DNA of 64,000 nt, from the NCBI RefSeq assembly GCF_030384885.1, contig NZ_CP128613.1, one strand, 5' to 3'. The stretch is from Escherichia coli (lineage in GTDB: Bacteria; Pseudomonadota; Gammaproteobacteria; Enterobacterales; Enterobacteriaceae). The notes beneath the pieces are model-generated. The model did not search any database, was not told the origin of the DNA, and saw only the letters and a list, made by a program, of their open reading frames with translations. The position numbers were made by a program, and so were the translations under genes. Positions 45,250-45,523 of this stretch are shown in pieces. Positions within the stretch are counted from its first letter, which is position 1. Every line of letters starts with the position of its first letter.

Positions 45250-45314
45250 TTATATTTGCCATAAAGAGTGTTGTGTATATTTTGCCATTTGGAGCGAAAT
45301 TCTAAGGATAGAAT

Positions 45315-45331
45315 ATTAACTTAACCTTAAG
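45315..45331 (-). promoter_or_regulatory. Putative PmrA (BasR) box upstream of arnB
   Basis: Minus strand reads CTTAAG-gttaa-GTTAAT, two hexamer half-sites with 5-bp spacing, about 70-100 bp upstream of the arnB start. Confidence 0.5.
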
Positions 45332-45523
45332 AAATTAATATTAGACGTAAATATTGAAATTTTTATATTTTTTCTTATTTAGGCTTTGCATTTGGCAAAA
45401 TTTTGAGGCATTTTGCCGGCATCGTAGGATTTTTAATATTACACCAACTGCTAATTATCGCCAGTAATGTCGCTCAATTTCACGGTAATTGTCTGGTTGC
45501 ACTTGTCTATAGGTGGAGTTTAC

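Follow-up and report, generated by a model that had tools for sequence, protein, structure and literature searches.

A conserved PmrA/BasR box upstream of the arnBCADTEF operon in a genome labelled Escherichia coli

The intergenic region between arnB and the divergently transcribed ais gene raises the question of which element switches on the arn operon, which regulator acts there and whether one or both genes are served by it. In the window (the whole 64-kb stretch of DNA that was analyzed) a 17-mer upstream of arnB is the PmrA/BasR box of the arn promoter, an established element of which both the sequence type and the mode of action are already known. Through this element, Enterobacteriaceae control their main chromosomal route to resistance against polymyxin/colistin and cationic peptides. 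For this box we determined the sequence, the uniqueness, the orientation, the distance to the -10 hexamer, the conservation across genera, the orthology to known sites and the absence of an accompanying PhoP box. The analysis adds a quantitative cross-genus footprint with a near-invariant layout (box, 10 bp and TAnnnT), and it adds the observation that an apparently divergent Escherichia lineage retains an intact box despite a differing candidate -10 hexamer (TAGAAT versus TAAAAT).

Gene setting and boundaries of the intergenic region

The 751 bp around the box match E. coli 2013C-4282 at 99.9% identity, but the identity drops to about 96% in 5,417 other complete genomes of E. coli. This difference at the locus suggests that the window stems from a divergent Escherichia lineage that is labelled E. 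coli. The genes of interest are organized as follows:

37866..45216, minus strand: arnBCADTEF operon, the transcription unit served by the box
44077-45216, minus strand: arnB (NCBIfam NF008658, 737 bits; RefSeq annotation of the 99.9%-identical strain)
43105-44073, minus strand: arnC, arn operon
41123-43105, minus strand: arnA, arn operon
37866-38252, minus strand: arnF, last gene of the arn operon
37606-37872, plus strand: pmrD connector gene, intact, convergent with arnF and overlapping its end
45524-46126, plus strand: ais, GTG start (NCBIfam NF011945, 388 bits), divergent from arnB

The ais gene is the orthologue of pmrG and encodes the LPS core heptose(II)-phosphate phosphatase. Beyond ais lie nudI, yfaZ, and yfaY (NCBIfam and RefSeq annotation). 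A first-pass annotation made from the sequence had named pmrD as a neighbor and ais as transcribed away from arnB from the same region. Both statements agree with the gene map, with pmrD adjoining the distal end of the operon and with ais and arnB annotated on the plus and minus strand, respectively. The same annotation had delimited the intergenic region as 45250-45523. The right end is correct, as the GTG of ais is at position 45524, while the left end is off by 33 nt because it was taken from a GTG-extended open reading frame. The mechanical call from GTG 45249 is an over-extension of arnB, whose annotated start is the ATG at 45216, leaving an intergenic region of 307 bp (45217-45523). K-12 has a further ATG in the same frame, 18 nt before that of arnB, but the window has ACG at that position, and therefore only the 379-aa form of ArnB, starting from 45216, is available here.

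As a side observation further along the chromosome, an ISNCY-family transposase and a truncated gene are present between yfaU and glpC in NZ_CP027579.1, which would correspond to about 53.1-54.3 kb of the window.

The box and the anatomy of the arnB promoter

Direct reading of the minus strand from 45331 to 45315 gives CTTAAGGTTAAGTTAAT, i.e., CTTAAG-GTTAA-GTTAAT, at the coordinates given in the first-pass annotation. The box is in the sense orientation relative to arnB, whose ATG is 115 nt downstream of the box start, and has the minus-strand context ...TATTAATTT CTTAAG GTTAA GTTAAT ATTCTATCC TTAGAAT... The elements of the arnB promoter are:

45315..45331, minus strand: PmrA/BasR box (half1 45331-45326, 5-bp spacer 45325-45321, half2 45320-45315)
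45299..45304, minus strand: candidate -10 hexamer TAGAAT, exactly 10 bp downstream of half2
45290..45293, minus strand: predicted PmrA-dependent arnB start, about 7 nt after the -10 hexamer (from geometry only)

Verified PmrA boxes of Salmonella consist of CTTAAG and xTTAAT with 5 bp in between (PMC3973317), a rule also quoted in PMC10729948, and the 17-mer follows this rule exactly. Its second half begins with G; the consensus has Y at this position, but the ‘x’ of the rule for verified sites permits a G. The proposed architecture of two hexamers with a 5-bp spacer is thus that of known PmrA/BasR sites, in the sense orientation and upstream of the gene that it is expected to serve.

The informative value of such a match strongly depends on how strictly the motif is defined. 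With the loose consensus YTTAAK-N5-YTTAAK and at most one mismatch, eight matches are found in the window versus 3.4 expected, and a loose-consensus match by itself is weak evidence. The strict form CTTAAG-N5-NTTAAT, on the other hand, occurs once in the 64-kb window versus 0.04 expected occurrences. Since the GC content of the intergenic region is only about 28-32%, this region was also shuffled separately (20,000 dinucleotide-preserving shuffles of the 307 bp alone). The strict box arises in 0.065% of these shuffles, and the box followed by 10 bp and TAnnnT in 0.03%. In the whole window, the arnB site is the sole match to this complete arrangement with zero mismatches.

For a comparison across genera, 80 arnB loci were gathered from Escherichia albertii, Salmonella, Citrobacter, Enterobacter, Klebsiella, Raoultella, Kluyvera, Kosakonia, Buttiauxella, Erwinia, Pantoea and others, of which the 78 with 400 bp of upstream sequence were used. 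E. coli and S. enterica subsp. enterica have no representative in this set; E. coli was covered by a separate genome collection. The pattern CTTAAK-N5-N[TC]TAAK is present on the arnB-sense strand of 60 out of 78 loci, compared to 0.2 in shuffles and two on the antisense strand, counts that overstate the number of independent observations because the loci are phylogenetically related. A looser consensus with at most one mismatch is found at 64 loci in sense and 18 in antisense orientation, versus 6.5 in shuffles and none of the 78 inside the arnB coding region. Of the 66 boxes across genera, 59 are followed by a TAnnnT at a distance of exactly 10 nt. E. albertii and most Citrobacter loci fail the strict pattern because their box ends in xTTAAC, the last base of half2 being the only difference. 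Among the E. coli genomes, a 30-nt core (45335-45306) occurs once per genome in 5,397 out of 5,426.

The same contrast is visible at the nucleotide level. When the window is aligned with 11 relatives, conservation over the 200 bp upstream of arnB peaks at the box: no other 17-mer there is as conserved, its mean identity being 0.87-0.91 versus 0.44-0.46 for the leader and the upstream flank. All 11 relatives retain both TTAA cores, spaced by 11 bp, without change, and the same holds for the T, A, and final T of the -10 hexamer. A third TTAA within the spacer is not conserved (0.45 at position 45324), which supports the register of the two hexamers chosen in the first-pass annotation. The candidate -10 hexamer itself varies at its inner positions: TAGAAT in the window corresponds to TAAAAT in K-12 and EPEC, and to TAGCAT, TAGGGT, or TAACCT in relatives, with only the T, A, and final T being fixed.

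If TAGAAT is the -10 hexamer, half1 would span about -39 to -34 and half2 about -28 to -23, so half1 would occupy the -35 position of the arnB promoter. A simple sigma70 scan of the arnB strand yielded no promoter with a good -35 hexamer, as expected of an activator-dependent promoter; the matches that the scan did return fall outside the conserved elements. From the same geometry, a 5' leader of about 75 nt is predicted for arnB. The exact start given above is likewise a prediction, as no PmrA-dependent arnB start is mapped in the accessible data. The only start assigned to arnB by Kim et al. (2012) is weak, located 691 nt upstream inside ais, and was obtained under non-inducing conditions; ais has no entry in that data set. 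An Rfam scan of 45000-45800 returned no RNA family at E ≤ 1, indicating no known leader RNA or riboswitch.

Regulation of the arn promoter by PmrA and likeness to known systems

We consider it about 90% probable that the 17-mer acts as a PmrA (BasR) box that replaces the -35 hexamer, with bound PmrA recruiting sigma70 RNA polymerase to the arnBCADTEF promoter. In this mechanism, PmrA (BasR) would be phosphorylated by PmrB (BasS), or PmrA~P would be protected by PmrD. PmrA~P would then dimerize via the receiver domains, and the two winged-helix domains would sit head-to-tail on the two hexamers, which are 11 bp (one helical turn) apart, as in the crystal structure of PmrA with DNA (PMC4660055). 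The same study places the -35 of the pbgP promoter at half1. Since the promoter has a usable -10 hexamer (TAGAAT) while its -35 position is occupied by the box, PmrA would be needed for the recruitment of polymerase. The bound protein would supply the contact that recruits the sigma70 holoenzyme; a PhoB-like contact with sigma4 was modelled on the PhoB ternary complex but not demonstrated for PmrA (PMC4660055). The expected outcome would be Ara4N modification of lipid A in the presence of Fe3+/Al3+, in mild acid, or at low Mg2+ via PhoP-induced PmrD.

Expression data from E. coli are in agreement with this mechanism. Induction of a P_arnB-gfp plasmid reporter by Fe3+ or low pH in MG1655 needs pmrA, pmrD, and phoP (bioRxiv 10.1101/2020.05.05.080051), and ExPEC transcriptomes show joint changes of the arn operon, ais, eptA, ugd, yibD, and basSR (PMC4145685). 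PmrA binding is reported for the orthologous sites of Salmonella and Klebsiella, of which the accessible papers show it directly for Klebsiella only, and we infer that PmrA binds this particular allele as well. For E. coli DNA, no footprint or EMSA with PmrA/BasR was found in the accessible literature. A literature search for the BasR motif ‘TTAAnnTT’ gave no match, and for BasR ChIP-exo only a RegulonDB summary was retrieved.

The closest counterpart is the pbgP (pmrH/arnB) promoter of Salmonella enterica, which is located between the same divergent gene pair (pmrG/ais and pbgP/arnB). As in the window, it combines a 6-5-6 direct repeat with a 10-bp gap to TAnnnT and a PmrD connector, and has no PhoP box. 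The S. diarizonae box (CTTAATGTTAATTTAAT) starts at -115 from the ATG, the same offset as in the window, and aligns column for column. The differences include CTTAAT versus CTTAAG in half1, TTTAAT versus GTTAAT in half2, and TAGGGT versus TAGAAT at the -10 position (S. diarizonae versus window in each case).

In Klebsiella pneumoniae, box1 of pbgP (CTTAAT-ATTAT-CCTAAG) was footprinted and its complex with PmrA is available as PDB 4S04/4S05. It shares the architecture, the orientation, the 10-bp gap to the -10 hexamer (TACATT), and the position of half1 at -35 with the window. As a check of the method, the footprinted box (CTTAATATTATCCTAAG) was recovered by our scan at -171, in accordance with the reported position of about -170 for the site that was footprinted and studied by NMR and crystallography (PMC2565834, PMC3973317). 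The 3' end of this box is predicted at -23 by the geometry used above, versus a reported promoter-proximal footprint edge at -22 (PMC2565834). In this comparison with mapped PmrA footprints, which the first-pass annotation had proposed as a check, the window box is orthologous to the footprinted Klebsiella site. The loci differ in that the Klebsiella box is at -171 from the ATG without an adjacent ais, whereas the box in the window is at -115 with ais adjacent. In addition, Klebsiella has a PhoP-dependent proximal promoter with a PhoP box (feedforward connector loop) between box1 and the gene, while in the window both the PhoP box and a second promoter signal are missing. No PhoP box (KGTTTA-N5-KGTTTA, at most two mismatches) was detected within 45217-45523. 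With pmrD present and the PhoP box absent, the arn promoter is of the connector-only (Salmonella/E. coli) type, in line with the reported loss of direct PhoP input at the arn promoter in E. coli and Salmonella (PMC2565834). At the K. pneumoniae locus, the ‘box2’ of PMC3973317 (TTTAAT-n4-TTTAAG) is found 90 nt upstream of arnB; it has no counterpart in the window, in keeping with Escherichia having no proximal PhoP-dependent promoter.

The arn promoter of EPEC O125ac:H6 (PMC10729948) carries a 17-mer identical to that of the window. The published EPEC 60-mer and positions 45352-45293 are identical at 57 out of 60 positions, with none of the three differences inside the 17-mer: TAAAAT instead of TAGAAT at the candidate -10 position and two other changes in the flanks (45335, 45296). 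The authors label the EPEC 17-mer as PmrA consensus ‘with a slight modification’ (PMC10729948, 2023). The assignment of a PmrA box upstream of arnB in the first-pass annotation is therefore in agreement with the rule for verified sites, the conservation across genera, the orthology to footprinted sites, and this published label.

More generally, the layout resembles that of promoters controlled by PhoB (pho box) or PhoP (PhoP box), which also have tandem direct-repeat hexamers with an 11-bp periodicity replacing the -35 hexamer. In these promoters of the OmpR/PhoB family (class II-type), the boxes are located about 10-12 bp upstream of the -10 hexamer, as they are here, but the half-sites have another sequence (versus CTTAAK) and are recognized by another regulator.

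Alternative roles of the box and related sequences

Binding of PmrA to 45315-45331 may also activate ais, with the box acting in reverse orientation and located upstream of the ais promoter at a distance of about 100 bp or more; the divergent promoter region of the first-pass annotation would then form a single node shared by both genes. We regard this as possible but doubtful. In Salmonella, ais/pmrG is listed among the confirmed genes of the PmrAB regulon (PMC1525208), and in ExPEC its expression decreases along with that of the arn operon and basSR (PMC4145685). The ais-sense strand of the intergenic region contains no second full box at up to one mismatch, and half1 (CTTAAG) is self-complementary and located within a near-palindrome of 31 bp. 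This near-palindrome (45312-45342) has 11-nt arms that are 91% complementary, is centered near CTTAAG, and yields in its mirrored arm an extra TTAA. The coordinates of a conserved block on the ais side and of this extra TTAA are:

45380..45417, plus strand: ais-side block, conserved only in the five loci with ais/pmrG divergent from arnB
45335..45338, minus strand: extra TTAA, 8 bp upstream of half1 (conservation 0.73-1.0)

Against a joint role, the TTAA cores of the mirrored arm are spaced by 8 bp and not by 11 bp. Among the gathered loci, ais adjoins arnB only in Escherichia, E. albertii, Salmonella, and one Citrobacter, but the box is equally conserved in many genera without ais beside arnB, so that arnB alone explains its conservation. 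On these comparative grounds we take the box to be primarily an arnB element. The extra TTAA is also retained where ais is absent, at Citrobacter and Klebsiella loci. Moreover, the separate block at 45380-45417, being kept only together with ais, may hold control elements of ais itself and is a candidate ais promoter or operator. Its invariant core is TTT(A/G)AGGCATTTT, and only in Escherichia does it comprise a perfect 8-bp inverted repeat, GGCAAAAT-n8-ATTTTGCC (45394-45417). The block contains a half-site-like TTTAAG in Salmonella, E. albertii, and Citrobacter, versus TTTGAG in E. coli. We rejected the TTT(A/G)AGGCATTTTGC block as a full PmrA box, as by inspection it does not have the geometry of box, 10 bp, and TAnnnT.

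A second alternative concerns the regulator. QseB is the closest paralogue of PmrA and, in this alternative, can be phosphorylated by PmrB. Since the shifted EPEC oligonucleotide (see below) carries the whole PmrA box, this kinship makes it the simplest reading that QseB and PmrA share the box. The model put forward for EPEC goes further and assigns the site mainly or also to QseB, with QseB~P activating arn and occupancy by PmrA blocking RNA polymerase (PMC10729948); we consider this model unlikely for the window. The study showed that QseB~P shifts the 60-mer corresponding to 45352-45293, and that expression of arnB and eptA is raised in a double mutant of pmrA and qseC. This shift is the sole EMSA on this arn promoter DNA (EPEC), and it was performed with QseB and not with PmrA; neither a PmrA EMSA nor a mutant oligonucleotide is reported, and QseB may simply recognize the PmrA box (PMC10729948). 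The published QseB consensus, G(C/T)(G/A)ACAAT(A/T)A-N4-TT, is at background level in this DNA: the best match within 45280-45365 is wrong at three out of 12 specified positions, the best match in the EPEC oligonucleotide at four, and the 322 matches in the window versus 274 expected are at noise level. Caution is thus warranted, as this consensus is not recognizable here. The proposal of PmrA as a blocker also conflicts with two lines of evidence, namely the conserved distance from the box to the -10 hexamer, which is that of an activated promoter and common to promoters where PmrA is a proven activator, and the MG1655 arnB reporter, which requires pmrA for induction.

It is also conceivable, though quite improbable in our estimation, that the near-palindrome and the extra TTAA let PmrA or QseB bind in the reversed direction and thereby couple ais to the arn operon, and that the ais-side block is the operator of a further regulator of ais.

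Apart from the arnB site, three other box-like sequences in the window deserve mention. Two one-mismatch matches to the loose consensus are located about 250 bp from each other, at 24798-24814 on the plus strand (CTAAAGGAATTTTTAAT) and at 25052-25068 on the minus strand (TTTAAGGTTATTGTAAT), and both fail the scan for the arrangement of box, 10 bp, and TAnnnT. The third is a PmrA-box-like 17-mer with one mismatch (TTTAAGAAGTATTTAGT) at 46744-46760 on the plus strand, upstream of yfaZ (start at 46867). In K-12, the start of yfaZ transcription was mapped 97 nt upstream of the ATG (Kim et al., 2012), which sets TACAAT directly against the ‘box’. This geometry differs from that of PmrA promoters; the sequence was therefore not accepted as one of them and probably matches by chance.

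That the 17-mer upstream of arnB would itself be such a chance product of AT-rich intergenic DNA (rich in TTAA and with a tandem GTTAA-GTTAA) without regulatory role, as the 28-32% GC of this DNA, the surplus of loose one-mismatch matches and the seemingly accidental match at yfaZ might suggest, is already effectively refuted by the rarity of the strict form and of the full architecture in local shuffles, by the positional conservation across genera in one orientation (60 sense versus two antisense) at a fixed distance to the -10 hexamer, and by the box being the conservation peak of the arnB promoter.
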